Positions 20,664-48,761 of a DNA stretch of 64,000 nucleotides are shown here, in pieces. The DNA comes from a virus, in the IMG/VR virus record IMGVR_UViG_3300046542_000271, positions 48,422 to 112,421 of that record, one strand, 5' to 3'. Numbering within the stretch: position 1 is the first letter of the stretch; every line of letters starts with the position of its first letter. Below the pieces are notes generated by a model. The model made no database searches. It had not been told where the DNA came from and saw only the letters and a program-made list of their open reading frames with translations. The translations under genes were made by a program, and so were the position numbers.

Positions 20664-20712
20664 GCATAGAGACAGGAGCTTACGCTCCTGTCTCTAGCTT
20701 TCTTTTTTTTGT
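20664..20712. terminator. Terminator with GCATA flank
   Basis: GCATAGAGACAGGAGC-TTAC-GCTCCTGTCTCTA plus a T tract, between convergent genes. Confidence 0.85.
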
Positions 20713-21387
20713 TTACGCAGCCTTGCGAACGTTGCCAGGCAGGAAACCTTTCACCAACTTGTTGCGCACTTTCTGGATGCACTCCAAGCGGGTGATCTTG
20801 CCATCAGCGTTGAAGTCGATGCCTTTGTTCGGAAGGAACTGACTGTCGCCTTCTTGCCACAGCACGGTGTCGTCTGACTTGCCGATACCGGCTGGCCATA
20901 GGATGGCCAAATAGATGTCGCCCAGGTTCTGGATCTTCTTGCGGTAAGGCAGGAAGTGTTTCTCCACGTAGCCCAGTTGCTCGACCACAGACATCTTGGC
21001 CAGAGCTTCGACGGTCGTACCCAGGCCGATAGCCGTGTTCTTCATGAACTGGATCAAGCCGGTTGCAGTGGATACAGGAGACTTGATCGATGGACTGAAA
21101 GTCTCACCAGTCTCCCACGCCATGCAGCCCATGAAGTCCTGGACGTTATGCGGTGGTAAACCGAGGTTACGAACCACCTGACGCAGCTTGGTGATCTCCT
21201 GCTCGGTGAATTTCTTACCCCAAGGGATATCGACAGCGTCATTGCTAACGATGTTACTCGCCAGCAGGGCCTGATACGCCTTCTCGGAGTTGTTACCCCA
21301 GATGCCATCCGGAGTCCCAGGATTGAAGCCCAATTGCTTGAGCCAGGTCTGGGTTTCGAGGATGGTCTTGTTTGGCGTGGTAGCCAT
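20713..21387 (-). CDS. Modular endolysin: N-terminal peptidoglycan-binding domain plus lysozyme-fold/lytic transglycosylase domain
   Basis: QTWLKQLGF.PG..DGIWG (PG_binding_1). MAWETG...ATGLIQFM catalytic motif. Sits after the tail-fibre genes, like phiKZ gp144. Confidence 0.85.
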   Translation of the reverse strand: MATTPNKTILETQTWLKQLGFNPGTPDGIWGNNSEKAYQALLASNIVSNDAVDIPWGKKFTEQEITKLRQVVRNLGLPPHNVQDFMGCMAWETGETFSPSIKSPVSTATGLIQFMKNTAIGLGTTVEALAKMSVVEQLGYVEKHFLPYRKKIQNLGDIYLAILWPAGIGKSDDTVLWQEGDSQFLPNKGIDFNADGKITRLECIQKVRNKLVKGFLPGNVRKAA

Positions 21388-21397
21388 GGAACTCTCC

Positions 21398-22021
21398 TTA
21401 CTGAGGCTGGGACTTGATGTAGCGAATGACTTCCCGTACTGGGTCGTCTTCTACCAGCGTGGTGAGGACAACGTCCTTTGGAGCAGTGTCTGGACCGTAG
21501 GAGAACTCCAGGGTCCGAGACGTGAGCGTGAGCGGAGTAGTGCTGCTGGCATTGAATGCTGCCACCAACTCCATGTCACGGATGTTGTACTTGCGACCAA
21601 TGGTCTTGGTGAACTCCAACGCCTGCAACGCGATCGACGTCTTCTGCTCATCACTGAGCATCTCGATGTCGTCTTCCAGCATGTAGTACGTCTGGAAGGT
21701 GTTCTTGGCGTAATACTCGACCATGATCGGCTTGGTGCAATCCCCTTTGGAGATGCAGTCAAACCAATCGCTATTGTCAGGTGCCTTCAGGATCGTCCCT
21801 GCGGCGTACTGAGCTGGAGTGGTCGGCATGGTAGCGTAGCGCATCACCTGGAACTCAAGACGGCTGACACCGCCTGGTGGACCACTACAGATCCATCGAG
21901 CGGCATGAATGCGAGCGAAGCCAGTGTAACGACCTCGCAACATCATCAAACCACGGTCCACCCCGACGTAGGGGTTGGTGTGCTGCACGTTGGTGGGGCT
22001 TTCCGGGATTGGGTGCGGCAT
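21398..22021 (-). CDS. Hypothetical protein (possible fibre accessory)
   Basis: Co-oriented ORF with SD between the fibre genes and the endolysin. Confidence 0.65.
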   Translation of the reverse strand: MPHPIPESPTNVQHTNPYVGVDRGLMMLRGRYTGFARIHAARWICSGPPGGVSRLEFQVMRYATMPTTPAQYAAGTILKAPDNSDWFDCISKGDCTKPIMVEYYAKNTFQTYYMLEDDIEMLSDEQKTSIALQALEFTKTIGRKYNIRDMELVAAFNASSTTPLTLTSRTLEFSYGPDTAPKDVVLTTLVEDDPVREVIRYIKSQPQ

Positions 22022-22030
22022 TGTTCTTCC

Positions 22031-22771
22031 TTACAGAGGATTCCAGGTAGCTGGGAGTTTGGTCGGTGCATCGATAGTACCAGCCGATACAGGGATGACC
22101 GAACCACGCGGGATGAGGCTTGGACGGAAGGTGCTGATCCGGACAACAGGAGCCACCGTGATCGACGCAACGCCCGTACCGTTAGTGACCACGGTGCCGA
22201 TGTACATGATCGTGGCGGACTCAGGAGGAGAATCCGTACGCACCTGGTACAGTACCTGACCAAACCGCAGCTTCACGAACAGGTAGAACGTCTTGTTGGC
22301 TGGCGATGGATCTGCCGAAGCCAAGTCGAGCGTAGCAATCGGAACGTTGTACGGAACGCCAGACATCACGATCGGTACGACCTTGTTACAGGTAATACGA
22401 AACGCACTGCTTGTCCAGATAGTCGCGACGTTAACAGCCCGACTATCAAGCCATCCGTAGTGAGACAGCGGTACGATGGATCGTGGGATCTTCGTGGTGA
22501 GTAGCCCATCCACCATAGGGGCGGAGTACGAACCGATACTGACCATGGACTCCCCGTGTGGGTTGTCCTTCCTGGCAGCGTGAGTCGCGAGTGCGTCCCG
22601 CGCTGCTTGTAGGAGTTTGGCGACAGTCCAGTCGACCTTGAGGATACCGGCATCGCCAGAGCGAACAGCCAGGGGACGAATCCGCACTTTAAGGATGCGG
22701 ATCATCTCGTTACGGTATTTCAAGAACGACTTGGTCCGGAAGAGCTTGAGAGCTGAAATAGGACCAGCCAT
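22031..22771 (-). CDS. Short tail-fibre paralogue (cassette 2, short b)
   Basis: H...DNPH N-module, PLSHYG, and C-terminal RGSVIPVSAG...W module. Confidence 0.7.
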   Translation of the reverse strand: MAGPISALKLFRTKSFLKYRNEMIRILKVRIRPLAVRSGDAGILKVDWTVAKLLQAARDALATHAARKDNPHGESMVSIGSYSAPMVDGLLTTKIPRSIVPLSHYGWLDSRAVNVATIWTSSAFRITCNKVVPIVMSGVPYNVPIATLDLASADPSPANKTFYLFVKLRFGQVLYQVRTDSPPESATIMYIGTVVTNGTGVASITVAPVVRISTFRPSLIPRGSVIPVSAGTIDAPTKLPATWNPL

Positions 22772-22780
22772 GATGCCTCC

Positions 22781-23467
22781 TTATTGGAACCAAGTGGACG
22801 GAAGAGTACCCTGAGCAGCCTGAGTACCAGTCGAGTGCGGGATACCTTGACCACGCGGTGCATCAGTGATCGGGAAGTAGCCAATACGTGCACCCTTCTC
22901 CATCACGACACTCCACGTACTACCTGACTTGGTAGCGACGCCAATCGCGAACTCGTACTGACCTTCGCTAGCATCCGCGTCCAGGGAGAACGTCCCAACA
23001 ACCGCCGGAGGCTCTCCCGTGAACGTGACCTTGACGTAGTACTTAGACCCAGCGCCCAACGCCAATGCCGCTCCAGGTACCACGACAGTACGACCGTTGA
23101 AGATCAGGGTACTGGCAGGTACGTTGAGGTTACTGCCTGCGATGGTTGCAGCGATCAATGGGACCTTGCTGATCGGGAAGGCATCCTTGGGGAAGTACAC
23201 CGCCGACTTCGCGTCGTACGTCGATTTGGCCATGCCACCCAGTTGAGCCAAGGTTTCGCCGTGAGAGCTAGGCTTGGCGGTCTCGTGGGTGGTAACCTCG
23301 CCCTTGATGATGGCGATGATATCTGCCAGCGAGAGTCCGGTGAGTTTGTCTGTGTCTCCAGACTCTCTGACGCGACCCGCCTTCGACTTGATCAGCCGAA
23401 AGATCTGAGTCTTGTACTTGCCGAACTTCAAGCTGAGAGCTGCTAACATCTCTGCGCTTGTGGCCAT
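22781..23467 (-). CDS. Short tail-fibre paralogue (cassette 2, short a)
   Basis: HE...SSHGET..QLG, FPISK, and RGQGIPHSTG...W. Confidence 0.7.
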   Translation of the reverse strand: MATSAEMLAALSLKFGKYKTQIFRLIKSKAGRVRESGDTDKLTGLSLADIIAIIKGEVTTHETAKPSSHGETLAQLGGMAKSTYDAKSAVYFPKDAFPISKVPLIAATIAGSNLNVPASTLIFNGRTVVVPGAALALGAGSKYYVKVTFTGEPPAVVGTFSLDADASEGQYEFAIGVATKSGSTWSVVMEKGARIGYFPITDAPRGQGIPHSTGTQAAQGTLPSTWFQ

Positions 23468-23470
23468 GAG

Positions 23471-26383
23471 TTATTTCCAGTTGAGGCGACCGTAGGAGTT
23501 TGGAGTACCCGAGGTCAACGAGAGAGACGAACCGCGATCTTCTGGCGACAACATGTAACCATCTACCGCCACATGCTTCTGAATGTTGATCACACTCAGG
23601 CCTGTACTGATCGTGGTGAAGTAGCCCAGGTACAACGCAGGTGCCGCAGGTGCCACGGTGGTGGTGTCGTTGATCTTGTATTGCAGTTCATCACCCACTC
23701 GCACCAACCACACATGGAACGTCTTATTCCCATCGGTCGCTGGATTGAGATTGTAGTTGAACGGCTTCACTGGTTTGTAGTAACCGTCGAGCATCGCCGG
23801 TGTTTCATCGGAGAAGTAAACAGTCCACGCACTCACCACGCGTTGCGAGATCATGATGATGCCGTAGTTAGGATCCTTGGCCCGAGTCACGAGTTCAGGG
23901 ACGCTCAACGTCGTGAGTTGGTCAGTCGCACACACCGCAGCCACCATCTTCGATCCACAGTCAACCTCACCGTAGATGAATTCCGACGACAGGACCCAAT
24001 ACAGACCACGACTAGGTAAGTTCACCCAACCGCCCGGTGCCGTACCATTCCAGTAGTCCCAGTGCGTCAGTCCGACGTTGGCGAAGCCGCCACCTGGGGT
24101 GTACTGCATAGTCAGCATGACGTGACCGTTGTTACCCACGACGCCGTAGTAGCTACTGTCAGAGTAACCAATCACGAATCCGCCGTTCACGCGACGGATA
24201 GCCACCTGACCAGCATCCTGTTCAGGAACCAGGCCCATCAGAGTGTTGCCACTGTTGGCCCTGGTTAGCATCATCCCAGCGCCCGTGATCGACGCACCCG
24301 TTACCGCCTGACGACTACCCGAGATGTTCACCGGATAGCAGAACACGTAAAGCGCCCGGTCGGTGTGGATGTACGTACCGATCACGAATGGCGGCAAGTC
24401 GGTATAGACCTGCGGGATGATGAGCTCAAACGCCATCATCGGGACGCCAGGCGGAATGGTCGACAAGGCGTAACCGCGAGCTGACATATCACCCAAGATC
24501 TGCGCATGTAGGCTTGCCATCACAGCCTGAGGAACAGTGATCGATCCGGACAGTTGTAGGTTACGATCCACGTTCGCTGCCCGCGACGTCTCGGCAGGCC
24601 ACCAATTCGAGAACCGCGCCTGAGATACTTTCGACACGCCAGGCGACGCTTCGTTCAGGAAACGTCTGAAGTTGGTTGGCGTTACGCCGAGTTCGTTATA
24701 GGAAGTCCGATCGGATGTCGGAGCGAACCCTTTAAACGCATAGTTACCCGTCACCGACGAATACTGGAACGTTGGGTTGCCTTGAAGTACCGACCGTACG
24801 TAGAAGTTATCCACCACGCCATTATAACGACCGTAGTTCAGACAGGTGACCACATCGTCACCCACGTTACTCACGGCGCGGTAAGACGTTGTCAGCGCAC
24901 TACCAAAGCGACCTACCGGATATACTCGAGAACCTGCCTGATAGTCGTGCTCACCCGCCAACACTTCCATCGGGTCGAGCGTTGTGTCGTAGGCGAACCG
25001 CACCATGCTGAGGTTAATCGACTGGTACGAGGTCGATGTCCACAACCACACCTGGTTATAGATGTTGGAATAGATCGACGACGTGTCCTGACCGTAATGC
25101 CAATCTTGGTGAGAGGTTTTGGCGAACGTACGCAAGCAGGCCGATTCCGACACATCCCAGCCAGCCGCACCGTAATTGATGGACGCCTTCCAGTTGTGGT
25201 ACGGCGACACATCGATCTGCTTGTTCTCGTTGAACTCGTACTTGAAGTACCATTGATAGCCGGTGATCTGGGTCGCATTATCGCCGGGATAGTACTGCAC
25301 GTAGTGTGCGAAGAAAATGCCGGTGTTGCCGTTGTCACGAGTGAGGGCGGACGGCGTGTTGGAGCCGTTGGTTGCCCAGACCGTGGTGTTTGGCTTGCCG
25401 GTGTTGTTCGAAGAGCTGATGACGTCGTCAAACAGGATGATGTCATCTCGGATCACAGTACCTGCAACACCGCGATTGATGGTCCAACCCGTGATGCGAG
25501 TAGCGCCGTTGAAGACGCCGGTGATCAGGTCGTTCTTGTTGAGCCGCCATACACGGTGACCCATCTTACCTTCCTGATGGATGTCGTGCAGGATGTAGAC
25601 GTAGTTACCCTTCACGAACCCAAACGGGATGTGGTACAGGGCCGGCATCGGACCCTTGACCTCGAGGAAGTTGCCATTCGGGACGAAGACACCGGTGTGC
25701 TTGGTTTGGTCCATCGTGTTGTTGGTCAACGAGATGAAGTAACCTGTGTGCGCACCAGTGACTGAGTCCTTCATGATACCCGTGATGACATCTTGGGTAC
25801 CGTTGAGGATCGCCTTGGCTCGCATCCCGGCTGGGAAGTAAGCGGGACGATACTCAACGTTGGTCATGACCAAGTTGTTCATGTCCGTTTCCGTCATGGC
25901 GTTACGCAGGTACGAGTAGTACACACCTGCGCTGTCACCATCGGTACCCGAACGGAGGATCATCAGCGTACCGTTATCCTCCATCATCATCGCCACGTTG
26001 TTGTACGGCGTGGTGTTACTGCCCGATTCGTAACTACCGGTCACCGCAGGTGGTAGAAACTCGTTGTCACCGTAGAAACTCAGCGGAACGCCACCATTGT
26101 TGTCAGCCAGCATGTCGAACTTGGCTTCGTACTCGATAGCCGAGTAACTACCCACATCACCTGGTTTGAGGTTGTGGACGTTGATCCCAACCTTCTGGGT
26201 GTGCTTAGTGACCTCAGCTACTGCCAATGCCGAGATCTCAGCGGGAGTCTTACCGCCGAGCTTAACTGCGGTGTCCGCGTAGTCCGCAAAATCCGCAGGT
26301 TTATCGAGAGCCTTGATCAACTCCACTTTGAAGTCTTTCAGCTGGACTTTCAGAGCAGCCAGGGCTGCATCATTGTTTGCCAT
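23471..26383 (-). CDS. Long tail-fibre protein (phiKZ gp145/146-like; cassette 2)
   Basis: Shared N- and C-modules. FLPP.VTGS.E.G, EDNGTL..LR.GTDG...GVYY. Large central beta-rich domain. Confidence 0.75.
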   Translation of the reverse strand: MANNDAALAALKVQLKDFKVELIKALDKPADFADYADTAVKLGGKTPAEISALAVAEVTKHTQKVGINVHNLKPGDVGSYSAIEYEAKFDMLADNNGGVPLSFYGDNEFLPPAVTGSYESGSNTTPYNNVAMMMEDNGTLMILRSGTDGDSAGVYYSYLRNAMTETDMNNLVMTNVEYRPAYFPAGMRAKAILNGTQDVITGIMKDSVTGAHTGYFISLTNNTMDQTKHTGVFVPNGNFLEVKGPMPALYHIPFGFVKGNYVYILHDIHQEGKMGHRVWRLNKNDLITGVFNGATRITGWTINRGVAGTVIRDDIILFDDVISSSNNTGKPNTTVWATNGSNTPSALTRDNGNTGIFFAHYVQYYPGDNATQITGYQWYFKYEFNENKQIDVSPYHNWKASINYGAAGWDVSESACLRTFAKTSHQDWHYGQDTSSIYSNIYNQVWLWTSTSYQSINLSMVRFAYDTTLDPMEVLAGEHDYQAGSRVYPVGRFGSALTTSYRAVSNVGDDVVTCLNYGRYNGVVDNFYVRSVLQGNPTFQYSSVTGNYAFKGFAPTSDRTSYNELGVTPTNFRRFLNEASPGVSKVSQARFSNWWPAETSRAANVDRNLQLSGSITVPQAVMASLHAQILGDMSARGYALSTIPPGVPMMAFELIIPQVYTDLPPFVIGTYIHTDRALYVFCYPVNISGSRQAVTGASITGAGMMLTRANSGNTLMGLVPEQDAGQVAIRRVNGGFVIGYSDSSYYGVVGNNGHVMLTMQYTPGGGFANVGLTHWDYWNGTAPGGWVNLPSRGLYWVLSSEFIYGEVDCGSKMVAAVCATDQLTTLSVPELVTRAKDPNYGIIMISQRVVSAWTVYFSDETPAMLDGYYKPVKPFNYNLNPATDGNKTFHVWLVRVGDELQYKINDTTTVAPAAPALYLGYFTTISTGLSVINIQKHVAVDGYMLSPEDRGSSLSLTSGTPNSYGRLNWK

Positions 26384-26406
26384 GACCGGTAGTTCCTATC
26401 GAAAGA

Positions 26407-27048
26407 TTACAGAAGCGCGAGTTCGGACGCTGCGATGTCAAACTCATTCGCGATGCCCAGGCAGAACGCATCGTAGTCCGCAAACTTCGCACGAATCTGG
26501 TCGAGCAACAGTTGACGACTGGCAGTGTCACCCTCACGGATGGCTGCTGCGATGTCATAGTTGGACTCGATCAGATATTTGAGACCATATAAGTCGTAGG
26601 CACTGTGCAAGTGTGGTGTCGGCACAAATTGCGACGGGATACCGATGATGTCACCCCAGGCAATAACCCGGTTATCATCCGTCAGATCCTCGATTGCCTG
26701 CAAGATAGCGTACAGGGAATACGAGAACTCACCACCGACCATTTGCGCACTGATGGAGACCTGAGTGCCCACAGTCGGGTTGATGATCCGTACCGCGGTG
26801 TAGACCGACTGACCAGTGGCGAGGGAAGCCTCACGGTAGTGGTGGACCAACACGTAGTCGGTAACCGGAACCAGGACCTTGCCAGAGACGACGTCCTTGA
26901 TGATGGCGGTAGAACCGAAGAACGGACCGTAGTCCGCTGCGAACAAACGACCACGCAAAGCGCCGATCGTGTGCACTTCGTTCGTCACCTTGTTGGTTGG
27001 GCTTGTCCCCAGGAGGTCCAACGGGTATTTGAAGATGGTACCAGCCAT
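26407..27048 (-). CDS. Virion protein, putative fibre adapter (cassette 2)
   Basis: YPLDLLG....NKV..E.H, GPFF, Q.VGGE.S, P.QF.P..H.H and SNYDIAAAIRE. Paralogue of 31414-32235. Confidence 0.7.
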   Translation of the reverse strand: MAGTIFKYPLDLLGTSPTNKVTNEVHTIGALRGRLFAADYGPFFGSTAIIKDVVSGKVLVPVTDYVLVHHYREASLATGQSVYTAVRIINPTVGTQVSISAQMVGGEFSYSLYAILQAIEDLTDDNRVIAWGDIIGIPSQFVPTPHLHSAYDLYGLKYLIESNYDIAAAIREGDTASRQLLLDQIRAKFADYDAFCLGIANEFDIAASELALL

Positions 27049-27063
27049 TGTAATGACCTCTAA

Positions 27064-27762
27064 TTAGTTGAACCAGCCAGCAGCCAGCTTCGAAGGATCG
27101 CTCGCATTACCAGTTGCTACCGGGATAGCAGAACCGATTGGCGAGGTGCTGACCCGATACGTGTCAATCCGCGTCACCCGAGAGATCGACAATGTCGTCA
27201 CTGCCGTGGCACTGGTCACCACCCGACCGATGTACATCCGGGTAGCGGTCTCAGCCAAGTCCTGGGTGCTGAAGTAGTAGCTGATCGCACTACCGTTCCA
27301 ACGCAGGTACACGTAGTAGGTCGTGCTCGGCGACAGATCGATACTGAACGGAGCCACCTTACGGCTGTACCCGTTCATCATGGCCGCTACATCAGCCGTG
27401 AATGTCACGGTCAACCCAGTGGACGACACCGGGATAGCGGCGTTAGTCAACTCACCGTAGCGAGAGATCGGCAGAATACCCTCAGGGATGCGTCCGGCGA
27501 TGGAGTTGTCCACCGTCGGCTTGATCGTACCCAGCAGCTGGATGGCCGTTGTGCCGTGAGGGTTTTCTTTATTGTTGATGTGGAGGTTAGCTTCAGCCTT
27601 GGCTTCGTTGCCAAGCGAAGTCGCCGTGTATTCGCCAAGTCGTAAGGTGTTGTCGGCCACATCAGCCCCCTCCGCCTTACGTGCAAGTAGGGTCAACAAG
27701 TGACCCTTCATGCGATTGAACTCGGCCGCCATGTTGTCTACCAAAATGGTGATGGCACTCAT
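27064..27762 (-). CDS. Short tail-fibre paralogue (cassette 1, short b)
   Basis: HINNKENPHGTTA.QL, LPISRYG, and RIDTYRVS..PIGSAIPVATG...W. Confidence 0.7.
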   Translation of the reverse strand: MSAITILVDNMAAEFNRMKGHLLTLLARKAEGADVADNTLRLGEYTATSLGNEAKAEANLHINNKENPHGTTAIQLLGTIKPTVDNSIAGRIPEGILPISRYGELTNAAIPVSSTGLTVTFTADVAAMMNGYSRKVAPFSIDLSPSTTYYVYLRWNGSAISYYFSTQDLAETATRMYIGRVVTSATAVTTLSISRVTRIDTYRVSTSPIGSAIPVATGNASDPSKLAAGWFN

Positions 27763-27774
27763 TACTTGACCTCG

Positions 27775-28482
27775 TTATGGTTTCCAGTCGGCTGGGATAG
27801 TACCAGTCGCGGTTGGTAGACCTGTGGACGATGGGATACCAGCACCCATACCCGACGGCGTCAGACGGAAGTTATCGATCTTACAGAACTTACCGATAGT
27901 ACCGCTGACGATCTGCGTGGCGTTGGTCGTGACCGAACCGATGTACATCCGAGTCGTACTCTCCGACAACCAGACGTCCGACAAGGTAATAGAAGCCAAC
28001 TCGTTAGCGATGGTGACGTAGACGAAAATCGTCTTGTTGGCTGGAGTACCCGTCAATGGAATCGTCTGGCCGGACAGCGAGTAGGACTTACCGCTGATCA
28101 TGAGTGGGATAGTGCCCGTGAACACGATACTCATACCGGTGTACGACACAGCCAACGCCGTGGCACTCAACGCGCCAAACTGACTGAGTGGCAGGAGACC
28201 CACCCGCAACAGCGGGTCAGTGAGATCTGCCAGTTCATTCGGCGTGTACGCATTGAGTTGCTCAGGCGTCAGCGTGTGGGCGTTGTTGGTACGCGCTGCG
28301 TGAGTGTTGATGAGGGTATCCACCGGCGTTTGAATCTGCGCCGGTGTTTGCCCGTTCAACGTGGTAGCGTTTTCAGACGTGGCTGAGGTTGGGGCTTTCC
28401 GAGACAAGAGGCGAACCATCTCGTCCGAGAACTCCTTGATCTCCACCAGCAACGTCGCGATTTTCTCCTGGACCGTTGGCAT
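27775..28482 (-). CDS. Short tail-fibre paralogue (cassette 1, short a)
   Basis: HAARTNNAH.LT..QL, LPLSQFG, and GAGIPSSTGLP...W. Confidence 0.7.
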   Translation of the reverse strand: MPTVQEKIATLLVEIKEFSDEMVRLLSRKAPTSATSENATTLNGQTPAQIQTPVDTLINTHAARTNNAHTLTPEQLNAYTPNELADLTDPLLRVGLLPLSQFGALSATALAVSYTGMSIVFTGTIPLMISGKSYSLSGQTIPLTGTPANKTIFVYVTIANELASITLSDVWLSESTTRMYIGSVTTNATQIVSGTIGKFCKIDNFRLTPSGMGAGIPSSTGLPTATGTIPADWKP

Positions 28483-28485
28483 GTA

Positions 28486-31401
28486 TTAACTCCACTGCAA
28501 CTTGTCGGCGAGACGTGGGAGGCCAGAACTGACCGGGATAGCAGAACCACGGGCCGTCAAGCTGATACGGACGTTACCCAGACGGGTCACCTTCTCAATC
28601 TCGATGGTCGCGATCTGCGTGGCGTTGGTGATGACCTTACCCACGAACATGTTGGTGTTGGACTCAGCCGTCTGGTTAGTAGCCACCACATAGGTCGCCA
28701 CGTTACTGACGATCCGAACGTACACGTAGAACGTCCGGTTAGACGCATCAGCCAAGATCGTCCGCAGGTCCACACTCGATACCGGCAGTGTGTAGTAGTT
28801 CCCGTTGAGCACCACAGGGGTGTCTTCGGAGAAGTACAGGACCCAACCTTCGGCTGCCTTCTGAGAAGCCAAGCACGTCCATTGATCGGTAGGGGCTACA
28901 GTACCGCCAGACCACGCATCGTAGTCCGCCTGTGTCCGACCGATTGGCAGGAAGTTAAGCTTGGTGGTTTCGTCCGAATAGCCCGTCTCGCCGATCGTCC
29001 CCCAATGCAACCCGAACCCCAGAGATGGGTGGGCAATGAAATGCCGTCCCGAGGAGTTCGAATAGTGGTTGAAGGTCCGCATCTTGAAGTCGGAGCTGTG
29101 ATGGAACTCACCTTCCGCCTTGTTGTACGTGAACGCGATGGTTGGGATCGGGTTACCGCCTGGGACCAGGAAGTTTGCCGAGCAAGACGAACCGATCAAC
29201 ACCACATCGCCGTTATCCCACATCGAGCATGCGCCGGAGTACAGGATGTTGGTGGCGTTGTAGGCGATACCACGTCCGATAGCAGCATAGACGACGCGTT
29301 GAGGATAAACCTTACTCACGGTGACGTTGCTGATGTTGTCAGCCGCATCACGCACCACAGCACATTTGGCGATGGTGAAGATCAGGTTCTTCGACGTGTC
29401 CTGCGCTACCATCAGGGCGAACGGAGGAACACCGTTCTGTGTCGGTACCACCAACTCGATCACGTAGAACTCGAGCGGAGCTGCACCCACTTCCACCATC
29501 TTGTCGGAGATCGATTTACCGGTCTTCTGCAAGAGGGCTTCTGTGATGCTGACGTTGGCACCTACTGACAGATCGCCTGCGATGGACTTCTTGCCCGTCA
29601 GACGACTGAGAGTACCCAGACCAGGACTGCCGCAGATAAAGCGCAGACTGGAGCAGAATACACCGCTAGCGTTGACTTCGTTGACTGGAGCCTCGTAGTC
29701 AGCTTGCGCCAACCCCATGTCAGTCAGGAAGCGCCGATCGGCCGAGGGGGCGAAACCTTTGATCTGGCCCCGATAGATCGAATCGTAGATATAGTTGTTG
29801 CCCGTACCTTCCAGCGTGGTCGTCACCAGACCCCGTTGATAAGCACCGGCAGCATTCACGCCATCAGCCATCATGACCAGCTTGGTAGCCGAGACCAGCG
29901 AGGGACTGTGGAAGTTACTCCCCAGCGCTGTACCGAACGACGGACGAACCGCCACGCTACCCTTACTGCTGATAGTGGTGGCGGTGACCTCCAGGTTATC
30001 GAACCGGCTAACGAAGTTGTTCATCTTGCCGATCTGGATGGTCATGTTGTCCACACCGGTCGACACCATCATCCTGAACGCATTACCGTACTCGTCGAAG
30101 CAGTACGTCGACTTCTGCTGGCCAGTGGTCGCGAGCTTGTCATACGTGAGCATGTCGTAGACAGGACCTTCGTACGAGGGTAGATCGCCCGCTTCTCGAA
30201 CGATGCTTTGACCAGCCAACATCGCCGTGTCCAACTTGGCGACCTTGGTCACTGGGTTGTAGGTGAAGCTGAAACCGATCCCCTGGTAGAGCGAGTTACC
30301 GGTGGTCACGCAACGAGACTGACCGTAGACCTTGGTGCGGATCAGGCCAGAGACCTCATCGTACGCCGAGACCATCGTCGGGACGTCCCAATAGAACACC
30401 ACTGCACTCGAGAACGTACCAACCAGCAACACCATTGGGTTATCGGCAGGAAGGTAACTGCCCAGCTTGTTAGCCAGACGAATGCCGTTCATGCCGTTGT
30501 AGTCGATGTTGCCAAAACCCTTGGCATTGATGCCAGTGACTTGGGTCAACGTAACGACCGCGCCGTTTGCAGCGTTCAGCGTAGCCTTCGACATGGTGAA
30601 GACCGACACTTCCCACGGGTTGGCCTGGTTCACTGCCGGTAGACCGTAGAACAGCACGTTGTTACCAGCGAGGATGGCTTCACCGTCTTTACCCATGGCT
30701 TCCGCCGCGGCTTTAGGGATGATACCACCTGTATGCTTCGAATCGTCGAAGGTACCGTTGGACAGAGCTAGGAAGTAATCGCCAGGTACACCAGCTGCAT
30801 CCTGGAGCTGACCGAAGATAACCGACGAGCTCGATGCAAACACCGAATGAGCCGATTGTCCAGCAGGGAACCAGGAAGGACGATAGCGACGTGTGGTCTT
30901 GACCGGCTGGCTGGCACGGATAGCAGCGTTAGGCATGAACGCGTAGAACACGCCGCTCTTCGCCCCGTCCGTACCGTTACGCAGATAAACAGCCGTACCG
31001 TCTTCTTCGATGATGGCCGCACAGGCGTTGCGCAGTTTAGCCGTCGTACCGCCTTCGAAGCTACCTGTCACGCCGGGCGGCAGATAGTTGAGGCTACCAT
31101 AGCGGCAGATCGGTACGATGGCCTTAGGCATCAGCTCAGCTTCGATGGCTTTCCAGTCAGCATCCAAGTGGATACCAACACTCGCAGCCGTATCGTTGTG
31201 AGCGTTACCCGTTTTGATAACGTGTGCTTTGGTCGCTGCTTTCACAGCGGTTGCGAGTTGGGATGCCGTCTTCCCACCAACCATCCCCGAAACATCGGAC
31301 GTGGCGGCAGTCTTACGTTGACCAACTATCAATTCACCGACTTTGGTGAACGTGTTGTTCATTGCCGTTTTCAGGGCGGCGAGGGATGTGGTCACACTCA
31401 T
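28486..31401 (-). CDS. Long tail-fibre protein (phiKZ gp145/146-like; cassette 1)
   Basis: YLPPGVTGSFEGG, EEDGTAVYLRNGTDG...GVFY, and C-terminal RGSAIPVSSGLP...W. Confidence 0.75.
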   Translation of the reverse strand: MSVTTSLAALKTAMNNTFTKVGELIVGQRKTAATSDVSGMVGGKTASQLATAVKAATKAHVIKTGNAHNDTAASVGIHLDADWKAIEAELMPKAIVPICRYGSLNYLPPGVTGSFEGGTTAKLRNACAAIIEEDGTAVYLRNGTDGAKSGVFYAFMPNAAIRASQPVKTTRRYRPSWFPAGQSAHSVFASSSSVIFGQLQDAAGVPGDYFLALSNGTFDDSKHTGGIIPKAAAEAMGKDGEAILAGNNVLFYGLPAVNQANPWEVSVFTMSKATLNAANGAVVTLTQVTGINAKGFGNIDYNGMNGIRLANKLGSYLPADNPMVLLVGTFSSAVVFYWDVPTMVSAYDEVSGLIRTKVYGQSRCVTTGNSLYQGIGFSFTYNPVTKVAKLDTAMLAGQSIVREAGDLPSYEGPVYDMLTYDKLATTGQQKSTYCFDEYGNAFRMMVSTGVDNMTIQIGKMNNFVSRFDNLEVTATTISSKGSVAVRPSFGTALGSNFHSPSLVSATKLVMMADGVNAAGAYQRGLVTTTLEGTGNNYIYDSIYRGQIKGFAPSADRRFLTDMGLAQADYEAPVNEVNASGVFCSSLRFICGSPGLGTLSRLTGKKSIAGDLSVGANVSITEALLQKTGKSISDKMVEVGAAPLEFYVIELVVPTQNGVPPFALMVAQDTSKNLIFTIAKCAVVRDAADNISNVTVSKVYPQRVVYAAIGRGIAYNATNILYSGACSMWDNGDVVLIGSSCSANFLVPGGNPIPTIAFTYNKAEGEFHHSSDFKMRTFNHYSNSSGRHFIAHPSLGFGLHWGTIGETGYSDETTKLNFLPIGRTQADYDAWSGGTVAPTDQWTCLASQKAAEGWVLYFSEDTPVVLNGNYYTLPVSSVDLRTILADASNRTFYVYVRIVSNVATYVVATNQTAESNTNMFVGKVITNATQIATIEIEKVTRLGNVRISLTARGSAIPVSSGLPRLADKLQWS

Positions 31402-31413
31402 GAAGAGAGTCCT

Positions 31414-32235
31414 TTACAGGTTGGAAAGGTCCGTGGCTGCCTGGTTGTACGTGGCAGTCATCGAGTCGATCGTCGTCACGAGGTTAGCGTTAGTGGTATC
31501 AGCACCAACCTGGATAGCCGCCAACTGGTTAGCCGCTGTCGTGTAGGACGTGGTCATCGAATCGATCATGGCGATCAAGTCTTCTTCAGCCGCACCACCG
31601 CCGGTGTCGAGACCTTGCAGGATCGCGTCCATCTCGTCGCGACTGTAATACTCGCTGAACAAGACGGGTGGGTTTTCCAACCAATGATCGGTGCGCTCAC
31701 GGATAGCCGCGGCGATGTCATAGTTGGAGGCGATGACTTCGGCCAGGCCGGTCATGTCGGTAACGTCGTGGGCGTGTTCGATAGGAGGGAATGCGGTCGG
31801 AACCCCACTCACTTCTTCGTACGTCACAGTCCGTGGATCGAGTGCCCGGTTAGAGGCAATTTCCAGCAACTTGGTTTCGTTGAGAGACCAGCTACCGCCG
31901 AGGACTTGGTATTCGGTAATTTCCACGATACCAGACAGTGTCCGGTCCATGAACAGAATACTTTGATAGATACCGCCACGGATACCTTCAGTTTCATAAC
32001 TCGCGCTATGGAACTTATGACCCGGCATCCAGTCCACGCCACGGATCAAAGTCTTGCCCGTGGTGATGTGTTTCAGCTTCAGCGTGTCACGGTAGTACGG
32101 ACCTGCCTTCGTGAGGATGAAATGATAGTCCAGCGGTTCGCCCGGAGGATTCAACGTTTGGCGCTCTTTGAGCACCTTGTTTGTAGCGGCTTGTCCTGTG
32201 AGATCCACAGGGTACAAGTAATCAGTGAGTGCCAT
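31414..32235 (-). CDS. Virion protein, putative fibre adapter (cassette 1)
   Basis: YPVDLTG....NKV..E, GPYY, YQVLGG.WS, P..FPP..H.H and SNYDIAAAIRE. Confidence 0.7.
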   Translation of the reverse strand: MALTDYLYPVDLTGQAATNKVLKERQTLNPPGEPLDYHFILTKAGPYYRDTLKLKHITTGKTLIRGVDWMPGHKFHSASYETEGIRGGIYQSILFMDRTLSGIVEITEYQVLGGSWSLNETKLLEIASNRALDPRTVTYEEVSGVPTAFPPIEHAHDVTDMTGLAEVIASNYDIAAAIRERTDHWLENPPVLFSEYYSRDEMDAILQGLDTGGGAAEEDLIAMIDSMTTSYTTAANQLAAIQVGADTTNANLVTTIDSMTATYNQAATDLSNL

Positions 32236-32320: not shown

Positions 32321-33577
32321 ATGTTTACGCTTGTAACTGCAATGGCGAGTCTTCGTGGTGCAAACCAACGACTGGTAACGACTGATGTCCGTACCACTTT
32401 GGTCCGGGATCTCATGACGAAGTACAGTCAGTGCATCCTCATTTTGTCCCACCCTTCTATCGATCACCAGGTGAGTCTCGACGTCTCTAAAGTCGCCACC
32501 ATGTTCTACCAATACAGTCCTAACCTGACTACGGTGCAATGGTTGACCGCTATTGGTGATAGTGATGTCCCGTTTGACCTCACCGTGCCCACTGTGGTGA
32601 AGTCGAGTGCCCTTGCTTCGGAAGCTTACGCTGCCGGATACAACGTACAACGCATCCACCCATTGGCCGGTGAAGGCAACCAGTACCCTGATCCAGAACT
32701 GACCCACCTGCGATTGACCCGTCCCGATACCGACTACATGGACGTGTTCAACAACTGCCTGGCCAGTGTCAACGGTCTGCTTCATTTAACTGACGCAGGC
32801 ACTGACGGCTTCCGCATCATTGACGGCGGCAAGAGTGTTAACCTCTCTGGCCGTAATGAAGTCGGCTTGATCAGTTTCAAGAATGTTGGCAAGATCCAGT
32901 GCTACCCAGTGACCGCATCGATGATCACCGGTCGCAAAGGGTTGCCATTGGCTCAAGGCGCTGTACTCACCGCACCTGGTGCTGACTTCAGCAACAAGTA
33001 CGTGATGTTGGTGGTGGGCGGCTTCCTTCACACGGCTGGCAACCAGTACAAGGTCGTGGGTAAGAACTCCGTCATGCTCGAATGGTGGAAGCTGCCTCTG
33101 CATCGTCGGTACAACGATACCCGTAAGCTGATCGACTGGACTCCAGTGACCAAGCTGATGGATCGTAACCTCGAACACACCGGCGCCATTGACCTTAACC
33201 TGATGAACACGGACCCGTGCATCAAAGCATACCTGACGATGAGCAATACCTTCCTCATCGCCGTGGATTCGCCGAACCTGTTCTTCGAGAACGTTCCGGT
33301 AGAACGCACTGGTCTTGCAGGCCGCTACTACAGTTACGTCCCACCCATCTGGCCACTGATCCTGGCGAACGGCTTCTTGCCTCCGTACACCATCCACGGT
33401 AACAACGGGATGTACTGCATGGCGGTGGATGTCAACAACCTGCCGAACTACCTCCACGACACACGCAACGTCATGGACGGTGATGCCTACGAGAACGACG
33501 CCAAGGTGCATGCCCCTAATAAGGAATACGCCAGCGCCTACTTCATGGACATCTTCAACGAACGTTTGAAGTATTGA
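32321..33577 (+). CDS. Conserved phiKZ-like virion structural protein
   Basis: SD AGGAG. NCLASVNGLLH motif. Flanked by tail genes. Confidence 0.6.
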   Translation: MFTLVTAMASLRGANQRLVTTDVRTTLVRDLMTKYSQCILILSHPSIDHQVSLDVSKVATMFYQYSPNLTTVQWLTAIGDSDVPFDLTVPTVVKSSALASEAYAAGYNVQRIHPLAGEGNQYPDPELTHLRLTRPDTDYMDVFNNCLASVNGLLHLTDAGTDGFRIIDGGKSVNLSGRNEVGLISFKNVGKIQCYPVTASMITGRKGLPLAQGAVLTAPGADFSNKYVMLVVGGFLHTAGNQYKVVGKNSVMLEWWKLPLHRRYNDTRKLIDWTPVTKLMDRNLEHTGAIDLNLMNTDPCIKAYLTMSNTFLIAVDSPNLFFENVPVERTGLAGRYYSYVPPIWPLILANGFLPPYTIHGNNGMYCMAVDVNNLPNYLHDTRNVMDGDAYENDAKVHAPNKEYASAYFMDIFNERLKY

Positions 33578-33614: not shown

Positions 33615-33881
33615 CTACATGGGAAGGTCGAACCACGGATTGCCGTCTGCCGTATGCCCACAACTGGCAGCACAGCCTTGAATGACAACTGGGATGCCTT
33701 CAATAGACATCCAGCTGGTAGCCATCACCATTGCAGGTCCTTGGTGGATACCTGGAGCGTGACTCATCACCCCATCGCCCAGCAAGGACATTGGGAGGCC
33801 CTCTGCGGTCCAATGAGGAGCTCCTGGCCCGGTGATAAGGCCTCCGGCTTGTGACTGCCCTACAAGAGAGATCAGAGGCAT
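33615..33881 (-). CDS. PAAR-like spike tip protein
   Basis: 88 aa with EGLPMSLLGD...H...H and IEGIPVV.QG..ASCGH metal-binding pattern. Start overlaps the spike gene stop (TAATG). Confidence 0.8.
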   Translation of the reverse strand: MPLISLVGQSQAGGLITGPGAPHWTAEGLPMSLLGDGVMSHAPGIHQGPAMVMATSWMSIEGIPVVIQGCAASCGHTADGNPWFDLPM

Positions 33882-34750
33882 TAGCGACTACCTGTGAATT
33901 TCGGAGTTTTGAGCGTAGTACCAGCCGCGGTGAGCGTCATCTTACTGCCCCCACCATCGATACTGGCCAAGACGCCGCCTTTGGTGCGAAGGTTCTGTTT
34001 GGCTTCGACGTCGATATTGTTACCAGCTGTGACCTTGATGTCCTTCCCCGCCTTGACTTCAATGTTACGCTTGATGTCAGCGAACATGTCCTGGGGTGCG
34101 TACATCTTGATGTCTTGCTGGTCGATCTTGACGAACGTACCTTTGGCGTTCTGAAGGTGAATCAGGTTGACCTTGGACTGTACGTTGATCAAGTTACCGA
34201 TGTCGTCGGTGTACATGAACTCACCGGCGTCCGTATCGATGTAGAGTTCGTGCTGATACGACTCGCCCTGAGACTTGCTCGAACAGAATGCCAAGCGCTT
34301 ACTGTGCGTCGAGAACTCGATCCAGTACATGTTCTCCGGTTTGAGCTCGGTGACCGATTCATCGGTGGTGTTACTGATGCCGATGACGATGGTTTCGAGC
34401 TTATGGAGATGATCGTCCAACCCCATGGTCTTCCAGTAGTACTTGTCGGCGTCTGCGGTGGCCCACAGCTCGACATGGACACCACGGCGTACATCAGGAG
34501 GGGATAGGCGGTTAGAGCCGCTAGGCATCCACGTAGCCTTGACCACCTGGTCCGTCAACATCATGCCTTGCGATTCGTTACCGTCGATGTCTTTGGCTTT
34601 GTGGGTCATCTTTGCAGCGTTGGACGCCATCTCGCCATCGTGCATGGGCAGCCATTCGGTTGGGGTGACCTCGATCTCCCGTTCCATGATTGCCTTGTTG
34701 TTGGCCACGACACCCACACCGACCATCTTAAATACTGAAGCCTTGGCCAT
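33881..34750 (-). CDS. Baseplate central spike protein (gpV/gp5-like; phiKZ gp164-like)
   Basis: OB-fold-like N-terminus (W.P..SNR..PPDVRRG). C-terminal 8-residue beta-helix repeats (IEVKAGKD IKVTAGNN IDVEAKQN). Followed by PAAR. Confidence 0.75.
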   Translation of the reverse strand: MAKASVFKMVGVGVVANNKAIMEREIEVTPTEWLPMHDGEMASNAAKMTHKAKDIDGNESQGMMLTDQVVKATWMPSGSNRLSPPDVRRGVHVELWATADADKYYWKTMGLDDHLHKLETIVIGISNTTDESVTELKPENMYWIEFSTHSKRLAFCSSKSQGESYQHELYIDTDAGEFMYTDDIGNLINVQSKVNLIHLQNAKGTFVKIDQQDIKMYAPQDMFADIKRNIEVKAGKDIKVTAGNNIDVEAKQNLRTKGGVLASIDGGGSKMTLTAAGTTLKTPKFTGSR

Positions 34751-34816
34751 GAGTACCTCGTAAAGTTTCACACACTGAAAGTATGGTAAAGAAGAAAGGC
34801 TCGGAGCTGATAAATC

Positions 34817-37246
34817 ATGTTCTACGATTACATTCGCATTCACAAATGCAACCGGCTCACTAAGCCTACTATAGTTATTCGTCCAACCAAACGCATTCAA
34901 ATGGTGTTGGGGACAAACGGTTCCGGAAAGAGTAGTCTGTTGTCGATTGGCTTCTCCCCACTCCCGACTAACGAGAAAGACTTCTTCCCAGGCGGTGGAC
35001 GTGAAGTCCATATCCACGATCGGGGTCGGAAGTTCATCATCATTGAGAAGTACGAATCGAAGAAGTATTACTCCTTCATCGTAGACGGGGAAGAAAAGAA
35101 CGACGGTCATACGATCACAGTTCAGCTGGAACTCGTGAAGGAGTATTTCAACTATACTCCAGAGATCCACAACTTCGTGATTGGCAAGACCAAGTTCACC
35201 GAACTCAACCCTACGCAACGTCGTGATTGGATTGCTCGGATGTCCGAATCGGACTTCAACTTTGCTTTCCGTCAGTTCGAACGTTTCCGTAAAGGCTACT
35301 CAGCTGCCTCGTCCGTCGTAACGTTCTTGCGTGGTCGTCTTAATGATGAACGCAAACGTTTGCTGGAACCGAATGACGCTATCGAGATGCGTGCTCGTGC
35401 CGTCACTCTGAAAGCTGAGATCCGTTCGTTGATGTCGATCCCTCGTATGGAAGGTGACTACATCAGCATGGCTGACCTCCAGGACGAGTACAACGCTCTG
35501 TTCAATGGGTTCGATGTATTCAGCCGGATGGAATACCCACGTCTATTGCAAGGCGGTAAGACCTACGATGATCTGGTTGAAGACCTGACCTCTCGTTCGA
35601 CTGCCTTGAAAGCCGTACAAGAAGAGCGGGGATCTAACCTCGCCGATTTGAACCAGAGGCTGGTGCGTATCAAGAGTCTGATGTCGGTTGACCCCGATGC
35701 CTTGACCGATGAGCACAAAGCCTTGACTGAGCAACTGGATAGCTTGCCGATGTTCACCATCGACATCAATCCATCGCTGATCGTGCGTTGCGACAACGTG
35801 ATTCAAGCGTTGCGCTTTGCGTGTGCTGAACTCCCCGCTACTCGAGTGACGCACAATGCACTGATGGCTATCTCTGAGCGGCTACAGTCGCGTCAGATCG
35901 CTTTCAGCAAAGCCGACAACCTGTTGAACACCATTGGTGAACGACTGCACCAGATCGAACGGTGCGACACCGTGACCTGTCCTTCGTGCCAGCATGGTTT
36001 CAAGCCTGGGATCAACCCTACCGAAGTTGGTGAACTGCGTGAACGCCAACAGAAGGGTGATGACTTCATCAAGACCGTCTCGGTAGAAGTGGCAACGTTG
36101 GCTGACGAGCTGGCGGATGCAGACAATAACTTCAAAGCGTTTGAAGGTCTCGAAGAGGTTCGTCGTCGTTACATCCAACAACATCCTGGTTTGTTCGCTT
36201 ACCTGGATAGCGTGGGTGGTTTCGATCTGGGACGTGGTCTCTACGAGAAGTTGGCAATGTACGAGCGTGCAGTAACCCTGCATGAGAAGTCGACTGCATT
36301 GAACAAGCGGATCACTGAGATCAGGAACGCGTTGGAAAGCTACGAGCGTGAAGGGGCTGGCTTCAATGACCTGACTGCTCAACGCGATGCGCTGTTCAAG
36401 AGTTACCGCAAGACGTTTGAAGATCGTACCGCAGTAGACCTGGAGCTGAAGGACGTCAAAGACGACCGTTCCTACGACACACTCTTCGCCCAGTGGTACG
36501 GGGATGTTGAAGAGAAGGTGGAGGATTGGAAGCTCAAGCTGATCGCGTACCTGGATCGTGAAGCTGAGGTCATGGCGGATGAGGAGATTGCCAAACTCCA
36601 GACGACTCTAGCCATCAACGAAACAGCGTTGGCTGAAGACGATCTGGTGATGACGATCGTGAAAGACCTCGAGCAGCAACTGGAGAAGAAGCTCATTGAG
36701 CAGCAGGCGTACAAACACCTGACTGATGCAATGTCGCCGAAGACTGGTTTGATTGCTGAACAGATCACAGCGCAGATCGGTGCGATTGTTGGCGGTGTGA
36801 ACCAGATGCTCAAACGCGTATGGAACCACCCGATGTATATCCAGATGCCTGAACGTGAAGATGTGGACTTGGATTACAAGTTCCCTATCGTGGACGAGAA
36901 CCGCACACGTAAAGACATCGCCGATGGTTCTGACTCGATGCTTGAGATCGTGAACCGTGCGTTTGTGTTGACGCTCTACTATAGCCTGAACATGACCGGG
37001 TACCCACTCTTCCTGGATGAGCCTGGTCGTACGTTTGACGAGACCCACGCCCACAACCTGATCCCGCTGATTAAGGATCTTGTGGACAGTGACCGCTTCA
37101 GTCAGATCCTGATCATCAGTCACGACCCTGACAACCAGCGAGCGTTCCCCAACTCCGAAACCATCATCATTGATGACCGGAACATCAACTATCCCCACCC
37201 TTATAACGAGCATGTGGAATTCGAATATGCGGAAGCTGACCATTGA
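34817..37246 (+). CDS. sbcC: SbcC/Rad50-like ATPase
   Basis: Walker A GTNGSGKS, coiled coils with a CPSC zinc hook, Walker B FLDE, and IISH switch. Confidence 0.9.
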   Translation: MFYDYIRIHKCNRLTKPTIVIRPTKRIQMVLGTNGSGKSSLLSIGFSPLPTNEKDFFPGGGREVHIHDRGRKFIIIEKYESKKYYSFIVDGEEKNDGHTITVQLELVKEYFNYTPEIHNFVIGKTKFTELNPTQRRDWIARMSESDFNFAFRQFERFRKGYSAASSVVTFLRGRLNDERKRLLEPNDAIEMRARAVTLKAEIRSLMSIPRMEGDYISMADLQDEYNALFNGFDVFSRMEYPRLLQGGKTYDDLVEDLTSRSTALKAVQEERGSNLADLNQRLVRIKSLMSVDPDALTDEHKALTEQLDSLPMFTIDINPSLIVRCDNVIQALRFACAELPATRVTHNALMAISERLQSRQIAFSKADNLLNTIGERLHQIERCDTVTCPSCQHGFKPGINPTEVGELRERQQKGDDFIKTVSVEVATLADELADADNNFKAFEGLEEVRRRYIQQHPGLFAYLDSVGGFDLGRGLYEKLAMYERAVTLHEKSTALNKRITEIRNALESYEREGAGFNDLTAQRDALFKSYRKTFEDRTAVDLELKDVKDDRSYDTLFAQWYGDVEEKVEDWKLKLIAYLDREAEVMADEEIAKLQTTLAINETALAEDDLVMTIVKDLEQQLEKKLIEQQAYKHLTDAMSPKTGLIAEQITAQIGAIVGGVNQMLKRVWNHPMYIQMPEREDVDLDYKFPIVDENRTRKDIADGSDSMLEIVNRAFVLTLYYSLNMTGYPLFLDEPGRTFDETHAHNLIPLIKDLVDSDRFSQILIISHDPDNQRAFPNSETIIIDDRNINYPHPYNEHVEFEYAEADH

Positions 37247-48302: not shown

Positions 48303-48761
48303 ATGATGAGCGCCAAAACGTTTCGAACGATAGTCAACAACCCGGAGACTGGTAAAGACGATGTAGAGAACCTACTCGCTTTAATGTTTCGAGATATCCT
48401 CATGGCCCACTCCCCTAACGTCGACTCGCTCGACCGAAAGATGGAACGCTATTACCAAAAGGTGTACGGGGGTGATCGGCGGTTAGTGGCTCAGGAGAAG
48501 AATAACCTCTCCCGTGCCTTGACCCGTCCGTCCATCTCGTGGGAACGGTTGGAGACCTTGATCCAACTGTTGGGCTGTGACAAGTACGTTGTGCGCATCG
48601 ACATGCATTACGGCGAGAAGATTTACACCAGCGAGATCGAGGTTCGGAACCGTTACTCCGATCGTCGATTGCAACACGTCGCTGAATCCAATCGCAAACG
48701 TCGCAAACCCGCGAGTGAGAAACCGAAACCCGAAACACCAGAGGATCACGAAGATGAGTAA
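48303..48761 (+). CDS. Conserved hypothetical protein (possible HTH-like)
   Basis: LA..FR.IL and EKNNL.RAL....ISW motifs. Confidence 0.6.
   Translation: MMSAKTFRTIVNNPETGKDDVENLLALMFRDILMAHSPNVDSLDRKMERYYQKVYGGDRRLVAQEKNNLSRALTRPSISWERLETLIQLLGCDKYVVRIDMHYGEKIYTSEIEVRNRYSDRRLQHVAESNRKRRKPASEKPKPETPEDHEDE

Follow-up and report, generated by a model that had tools for sequence, protein, structure and literature searches.

Two adapter and fibre gene sets in an uncultured phiKZ-related jumbo phage and a proposed mixed trimer of three paralogous chains

Receptor-binding proteins (RBPs) determine phage host range. The window analysed here, a 64,000-nucleotide stretch of the virus record IMGVR_UViG_3300046542_000271 (positions 48,422 to 112,421), carries between its positions 22031 and 32235 eight back-to-back minus-strand open reading frames (ORFs), which encode proteins of 273, 971, 235, 232, 213, 970, 228 and 246 amino acids (aa). 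These genes form two tightly packed sets, each composed of an adapter, one long chain (L) and two short chains (Sa and Sb). With somewhat better than even confidence, we read the locus as an operon for the peripheral-baseplate (receptor-binding) fibres of a phiKZ-related, uncultured jumbo phage with two fibre sets, each of which would yield one mixed L:Sa:Sb shoulder trimer. A broader proposal, for which the case appears evenly balanced, is that in unrelated jumbo lineages propeller-bearing RBPs are obligate heterotrimers of three paralogues built on a shoulder of the TssK/p2 type, with one, two or three heads by gain and loss of an insertion, and that two such heterotrimers occur here, each held through a six-helix junction in its own gp131-type anchor trimer. 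The mixed trimer draws comparative-genomic support from gene counts of three, which suggest it without proving it.

Fold and homology of the fibre chains

In the first set, adapter 1 (positions 31414 to 32235) is followed by the long chain L1 (28486 to 31401) and the short chains S1a (27775 to 28482) and S1b (27064 to 27762); in the second, adapter 2 (26407 to 27048) is followed by L2 (23471 to 26383), S2a (22781 to 23467) and S2b (22031 to 22771). All lie on the minus strand, and the four-gene order that an initial annotation had described twice over is thereby found ORF for ORF. The genes are separated by 3 to 23 nt, no convincing internal terminator was seen within the run of eight, and the overlapping ORFs of the opposite strand are shadows whose translations are not protein-like. 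The four short proteins can be aligned from the first to the last residue, with invariant His61, His69 and Pro98 and a terminal Trp, and in translated searches (tblastn) every one of them matches both the N- and the C-ends of both long proteins, which bears out the C-terminal module claimed to be common to the six fibre chains. The N-terminal motif that had been described as shared by them is also present, except that the histidine motif reads H-x5-N-x-H in most chains, rather than with four intervening residues, and that S2a lacks its Asn as well as the [YF]G of P.S.YG. In five of the six chains, 37 residues separate the first His from the P.S.YG strand. L1 and L2 both match phrog_3573 (E 6e-147 and 8e-85, respectively), and S1a forms an orthologue clade of its own (support 100/100). 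S2a is the most divergent paralogue and has no PHROG match, its N- and C-module homology being apparent from tblastn and alignment; S2b was assigned by alignment and by its place in the tree.

S1b and L1 were modelled with AlphaFold2, both as monomers, from alignments of 27 and 68 sequences, respectively. The S1b model (predicted local distance difference test, pLDDT, 80 overall) has three N-terminal helices followed by a beta-sandwich at residues ~98-205 (pLDDT above 90). This sandwich matches the shoulder of the lactococcal phage p2 RBP (2wzp_A; root-mean-square deviation 2.8 A over 103 aa) with a Z of 8.9, which is just moderately above the stated background of 7-8, and the top seven matches are all tail or receptor-binding proteins of phages or archaeal viruses. 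Other shoulder matches are BPP-1 Mtd (Z 8.0), the A-1(L) fibre (7.6), the phage 1358 RBP (7.4), SPP1 gp22 (7.1), the HFTV1 fibre (6.6) and TssK (5.2), and the structural matches include 1yu0, 8kec, 4l92 and 2xc8, with a Foldseek probability of 1.00. The L1 model (pLDDT 86.9; predicted template modelling score 0.79) begins with the same helices and the His loop, reaches the P.S.YG strand at residues 98-101, continues as a beta-rich body to about residue 840, and closes with the remainder of the shoulder, which resumes at about residue 842, and the conserved tail. The tandem beta-propeller insertion thus spans residues about 102-842 (window positions about 28876 to 31098, minus strand), so that the earlier description of the short proteins as the long ones minus a central domain placed just after P.S.YG agrees with the predicted structures, at an insertion length of about 740 aa.

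In Foldseek searches, the L1 body matches tandem-propeller proteins. Its first propeller (residues ~113-493) resembles the six-bladed fucose lectin AAL, enzymes of families GH32, GH43, GH62 and GH130, sialidases, and the phi92 endosialidase, with Z of 11-13 over ~240-260 aligned residues. From the models, the long chain is predicted to be a shoulder with a carbohydrate-type tandem-propeller head of ~740 aa inserted in its first loop, and the short chains are its predicted headless versions; all six fibre chains are predicted to share N-terminal helices, a two-histidine loop, a C-terminal shoulder beta-sandwich of the p2-RBP/TssK type, and a conserved tail. The monomer model gives a poor prediction for the tail, G-S-x-I-P-x-S-x-G ... 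W, which is a candidate inter-chain element and whose position is comparable to that of the p2 neck.

The initial annotation had regarded the two sets as a tandem duplication that gives the virion two distinct fibre types. Two homologous sets are indeed present, but L1 and L2 share only 35% identity over their first 221 aa (E 8e-33) and 22% over a further 584 aa (E 3e-18). With paralogues 22-35% identical, any duplication must be ancient; a recent one is ruled out by these identities and by a tree in which the shorts of cassette 1 do not pair with those of cassette 2. The central domains are homologous propellers that align over their length, which excludes unrelated swapped modules. No further paralogue was found elsewhere on the 112-kb contig, which is about 45% complete.

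The same C-module fold (Z 5-9) is found in p2 ORF18 (2WZP/2BSD), the 1358 RBP, SPP1 gp22, BPP-1 Mtd, A-1(L) gp34 and TssK, and the likeness concerns a baseplate-associated trimerisation or docking domain of RBPs. Neither Pfam nor PDB sequence searches gave any sequence similarity to these known shoulder RBPs. Their domain order runs from an N-terminal shoulder through a neck to a C-terminal head, whereas here the shoulder is C-terminal and the head sits in its first loop; in addition, they are one-gene homotrimers, whereas here there are three paralogous genes, headless versions included. To our knowledge, the trimeric shoulder scaffold of RBPs has always been described as a homotrimer. More generally, a Pfam search of all eight proteins (E 0.1) returned nothing significant, its sole row being S2a against Flagellin_D3 (E 0.023, 15.5 bits, below the cut-off of 24.2); megablast of the locus DNA against the phage collection gave no match; and PDB sequence searches with single proteins matched only the HxH motif of fibres. 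The ribosome-binding sites across the fibre genes carry no stoichiometry signal, and a sigma-70 promoter scan is uninformative for a phiKZ-like phage.

Conservation of a three-paralogue unit

A library of 1.84 billion proteins was searched with a profile of the short proteins (E <= 0.001), yielding 2,904 cluster representatives whose lengths cluster around two values, about 230 and about 960 aa. The matches also include long fibre proteins in which the His-loop segment alone is repeated, up to 21 times. This segment of ~45 aa (H-x5-N-P-H-x2-T...G) is repeated 13-21 times in the proteins P0060, P0088, P0148 and P0151 (991-2614 aa), and three times in phiKZ-type gp131. The jumbo phages with homologues include, among others, members of Agricanvirus, Elvirus, Asteriusvirus, Mimasvirus and Eneladusvirus. 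A search with a single protein as query found no related loci; an alignment-based search gave 18 metagenomic loci, which were scanned with hidden Markov models (HMMs) of the modules alongside several cultured phages, and whole genomes were then searched with the shoulder-domain profile.

Six shoulder genes, arranged as two times adapter, L, S, S, are present in this window, in the metagenomic loci L003-L006 and in the complete genome G005, which contains L007. Three are found in the order L,S,S in the complete genome G004 (which contains L019) and in L011, S,L,L in L008 and L013, L,S,L in 121Q, Munch and Hallingskeid, S,S,L in XaC1, and L,L,L in GAP32, fHe-Yen9-04 and EL, the entries for L011, L008 and L013 covering the locus only; Deimos-Minion likewise has three (gp18, gp19 and gp20). 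Only two, L,S, are present in pEa_SNUABM_54, G001, G002 and G003, and none in the phiKZ-like PA02. Exactly three tandem shoulder genes are thus seen in nine complete genomes from at least eight lineages, and a count of one, four or five was seen in none of the matching genomes. By tblastn with a short protein, three places were matched in 33 of the 40 listed records, many of which are close relatives and not independent events. The conserved rule of one long to two short chains that the initial annotation had expected does not hold, as the relatives have LLL, LSL, SSL, SLL or L+S and the ratio is lineage-specific. Variation of this ratio had been named in advance as speaking against a mixed trimer; the constant number of three argues for one.

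The individual positions can be followed across lineages as well. In the lineage of this window, whose relatives are 42-52% identical in the long chain, the six positions correspond to six well-supported clades. In the Rak2-like group, position 1 forms a clade with support of 95/92 and position 3 one of 94/95, and at position 2 the L of GAP32 groups with the short genes of 121Q, Munch and Hallingskeid (99/97), the placements of XaC1 and fHe-Yen9-04 being weak. The position-1 S of XaC1 falls inside the position-1 L clade (95/92). The long or short state therefore switches within a position, which implies three non-equivalent slots that are conserved, with a propeller insertion that is optional in some of them. 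Taken together, the whole-genome counts and the positional orthology strongly suggest that the conserved feature is a unit of three paralogues.

The uncharacterised trios of other jumbo phages, Rak2-like ones included, namely 121Q gp499-501, phAPEC6 gp323c, GAP32_143-145, fHe-Yen9-04 g137-139, EL ORF114-116 and Deimos-Minion gp17-20, belong to the same family (PHROGs 3573, 26864, 7449 and 7557), combine propeller-in-shoulder chains with headless shorts in tandem to a total of three, and are virion-associated where tested. Rak2-like phages possess one trio and no separate gp131-type adapter, and in EL and Agricanvirus the adapter is fused to the chains. In contrast, the lineage studied here has two trios, each with a free-standing adapter, and an N-module that is helical rather than of the beta type. 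EL and Deimos-Minion each have exactly three adapter and three shoulder domains, spread across four chains.

That these are fibre or receptor-binding virion genes, as initially annotated, is supported. The long-chain homologue gp323c of phAPEC6 was identified as a virion protein by mass spectrometry (PMC7247149), and RAY gp18 and Deimos-Minion gp19 were detected by the same technique and are tabulated as 'putative structural proteins' (PMC6690015). No proteomic detection of any short paralogue in virions was found in the literature. This would suit a role of the short proteins outside the virion, as fibre-assembly chaperones or decoys of the Tfa or gp38 type, and their size (190-246 aa) and place right downstream of a fibre gene do resemble those of tail-fibre assembly genes. 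Such a role is nevertheless very unlikely, given that the shorts are paralogous to the long chains over their whole length, both ends included, and do not have a distinct chaperone fold, and that the orthologous positions hold long propeller-bearing proteins in GAP32, fHe-Yen9-04 and EL. Moreover, the short gene of phAPEC6 is unannotated, so that proteomics could not have detected its product. In that genome (MK817115.1; L024:6592-9399), about 2.8 kb downstream of gp323c carry no annotated coding sequence; a tblastn match runs into this stretch, and the near relative 121Q has a short and a second long paralogue there. Both genes were probably missed in the phAPEC6 annotation, and hence in the proteome search.

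Adapters, fibre base and alternative assemblies

The two adapters share 33% identity over 180 aa (E 6e-29), and all the common motifs quoted for them in the initial annotation are present. Both match phrog_2163, adapter 1 with its N-terminus (E 8.5e-41) and adapter 2 at 1.4e-58, and their matches to PHROGs with virion structural, tail or tail-fibre annotations are confined to the first ~180 residues of those families. Their N-terminal domain (~170 aa) is homologous to the N-termini of gp131, gp133, gp134 and gp135 of Phikzvirus, as adapter 2 matches these N-termini of phiKZ-like phages by tblastn and the adapter query P0005 finds four places per Phikzvirus genome (E about 5e-13). An adapter-module HMM matches the gp131 homologue of PA02 at 4e-26, with four copies counted in that genome by the profile, and does not match the L and S chains. 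At 213 and 273 aa, the adapters bear no fibre body on the chain, unlike gp131-like anchoring proteins.

The canonical HxH repeat of R-pyocin and P2-type fibres, W..(V/I)..(K/V)P..FPP..H.H, binds metal on the threefold axis. Residues ~126-165 of the adapter contain a classical fibre motif ending in H-x-H, over which the adapter profile matches gp4 of the collar fibre 9d93 (2e-13) and, weakly and by the motif alone, the R2 pyocin fibres 6ct8 (0.04) and 6cl6 (0.05); the same search of the PDB did not retrieve the phiKZ fibre chains. Because of these matches, the adapter is putatively trimeric. The conserved stretch at its C-terminus reads, from its sequence pattern, as an amphipathic helix. The orthologues keep this tail except where there are no partner fibre genes. 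Thus, the cassette-1 fibres are absent from L019, and the adapter-1 orthologue of that locus has lost the terminal helix and carries another C-terminal domain in its place. The joint loss links the helix to recruitment of the fibre chains, and together with the adapter-fibre pairing kept in the relatives, it indicates that each set is probably tied to its own adapter, as had been proposed.

Two further features of adapter 1 deserve mention. In this window (positions 31417 to 31590, minus strand), the terminal helix motif I-D-S-M-T-x-[ST]-Y...A-A-x-x-L occurs twice, compared with once in the adapter-1 orthologues of L003, L006 and L007 (243-249 aa), which represents a local duplication of ~30 aa of the putative docking helix. 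In the complete 248.6-kb genome G004, the adapter-1 orthologue (L019:7495-8460) carries a different C-terminal domain of ~110 aa and the cassette-1 trio is absent, an example of modular replacement at one of two fibre sites.

The closest proposed precedent is the fibre base of phiKZ. Cryo-electron microscopy located its fibre-attachment sites beneath gp130, in two positions per baseplate lobe and for a total of 12 fibres, and revealed at each site six gp131-like N-domains and a six-helix bundle, which were interpreted as gp131x3 + gp133 + gp134 + gp135 (PMC13250141). The likeness to the present locus comprises the adapter N-domain, the gp130-like neighbour, the His-loop motif in gp131-135 and the beta-propeller head, together with the proposed 3+1+1+1 composition (a homotrimer plus three single chains), the six-helix bundle, and the two fibre sites per lobe. 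There are also differences. In phiKZ, all six chains bear the anchoring domain and the propeller is at the C-terminus of the homotrimeric gp131, whereas here a small protein of its own provides the anchor, which is missing from the three unique chains, and the shoulder harbours the propeller as an insertion. Unlike this window, the Phikzvirus PA02 has no shoulder-domain gene.

In the assembly that we propose, an adapter homotrimer would dock under the gp130-like platform, and its three terminal helices would bundle with the three N-terminal helices of L, Sa and Sb, a junction that would parallel the six-helix bundle and the 3+1+1+1 composition of phiKZ. L, Sa and Sb would together make one pseudo-threefold shoulder trimer with a single propeller head, which may bind or cleave a host surface glycan, and the two sets may fill two fibre sites in each baseplate lobe, like those of phiKZ.

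Several points weigh against a mixed trimer, in addition to the absence of short paralogues from the proteomic literature. Every solved shoulder-domain protein that was found is a homotrimer, including the p2 RBP, Mtd, A-1(L) gp34 and TssK (PMC10966104), and the phiKZ hetero-hexamer is a low-resolution fit of AlphaFold models (PMC13250141). The shoulder is predicted with confidence even as a monomer (pLDDT above 90), with no co-folding demanded by the model. The trees rest on about 200 columns, with the position-1 gene of XaC1 on a long branch. Finally, two of the four relatives that have only L+S are 100%-complete genomes, and an obligate trimer of three different chains is therefore not universal.

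A less likely but serious alternative is that each paralogue forms its own homotrimer (L3, Sa3 and Sb3), either at separate docking sites or in a serial fibre similar to that of T4, the headless trimers serving as spacers, joints or struts. The homotrimeric state of the solved shoulder proteins and the existence of L+S-only genomes would fit this arrangement; a serial fibre also predicts a fixed number and order of paralogues, and the N-module and C-terminal tail conserved on every chain could dock head to tail. The T4 long tail fibre (gp34-gp35-gp36-gp37) offers a model for it, its several genes being neighbours that differ greatly in length and keep a fixed order, but its segments are mostly non-paralogous and consist of serial homotrimers plus a monomer. 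On the other hand, it is not obvious what a headless homotrimer would do, and yet selection has maintained four distinct short orthogroups; moreover, the interconversion of L and S at one position is easier to understand for a chain of a shared trimer than for a distinct segment. The equal 37-residue spacing between the His loop and P.S.YG is what in-register co-assembly would need, and the three adapter and three shoulder domains over four chains in EL and Deimos-Minion are hard to reconcile with separate homotrimers. The mixed L:Sa:Sb trimer is hence preferred.

The DUF7941 'fibre cloud' family of Chimalliviridae (Goslar gp22/gp23), described in bioRxiv 10.64898/2026.04.21.720040, was also considered for the locus and rejected, as none of the eight proteins has a DUF7941 match.

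Genome context and significance

Downstream of S2b, the operon continues with two further minus-strand genes. The first (21398 to 22021) encodes a protein of 207 aa, whose orthologues occupy the same position in L003-L007, L019 and L020 and are present in all close relatives at 42-92% identity; it has no PHROG or Pfam match and may serve in assembly or as an additional part of the fibre. The last gene (20713 to 21387), conserved in position, encodes a protein of 224 aa that matches the C-terminal region of the 'baseplate hub' families phrog_4928 and phrog_196, and, weakly, PG_binding_1 (21.2 bits against a cut-off of 23 bits); within the fibre/baseplate module, it may act as an accessory in cell-wall binding or lysis. 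A palindromic hairpin with a perfect 13-bp stem lies at 20667 to 20696, where the operon and plus-strand genes converge, and is likely the bidirectional terminator that ends the fibre operon.

On the other side, a plus-strand gene divergent from the operon (32321 to 33577) encodes a gp130-like protein of 418 aa that matches phrog_3337 and shares 30% identity (E 1e-54) with the PA02 gene that diverges from the gp131 homologue. By position, it is the counterpart of gp130, the fibre-attachment platform. An SbcC-like gene comes after it, and the fibre genes of Deimos-Minion are also near an SbcC-like gene, in a different relative orientation. The phiKZ-type virion proteins, with the SbcC-like gene nearby, place the window in a phiKZ-related (Chimalliviridae-like) jumbo phage. 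Between the gp130-like and SbcC genes, a minus-strand ORF (~33881 to 34780) has a C-terminal end that we take to resemble the spike beta-helix of the gpV/VgrG type, with K-x-T-A-G-x-N-I-x-V repeats; its listed start at 35218 overlaps the SbcC gene, and translation probably begins at an internal Met.

Taken singly, the components are of known kinds: an anchor of the gp131 type, an HxH motif, a shoulder fold and a propeller head. In the literature searched, the insertion of a head in a C-terminal shoulder, accompanied by headless paralogues, appears undescribed, as do the conserved three-slot unit and its doubling here with free-standing adapters. Heterotrimers were found there in wedge complexes (A-1(L), phi92 and phiKZ), and no heterotrimeric fibre of this kind was found. 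If true, the proposed assembly would be unusual for a phage RBP. It would make sense of a family that is very large and so far uncharacterised, in which PHROGs 3573 and 26864 have no assigned function, and would aid the interpretation of fibre density that is poorly resolved in the reconstructions of phiKZ and Goslar. The idea is directly testable in cultured phages that carry the trio, such as 121Q, Munch, XaC1, GAP32 and EL. If three paralogues do form a mixed trimer whose number of heads varies, phage adhesins would have a new route of construction and diversification.

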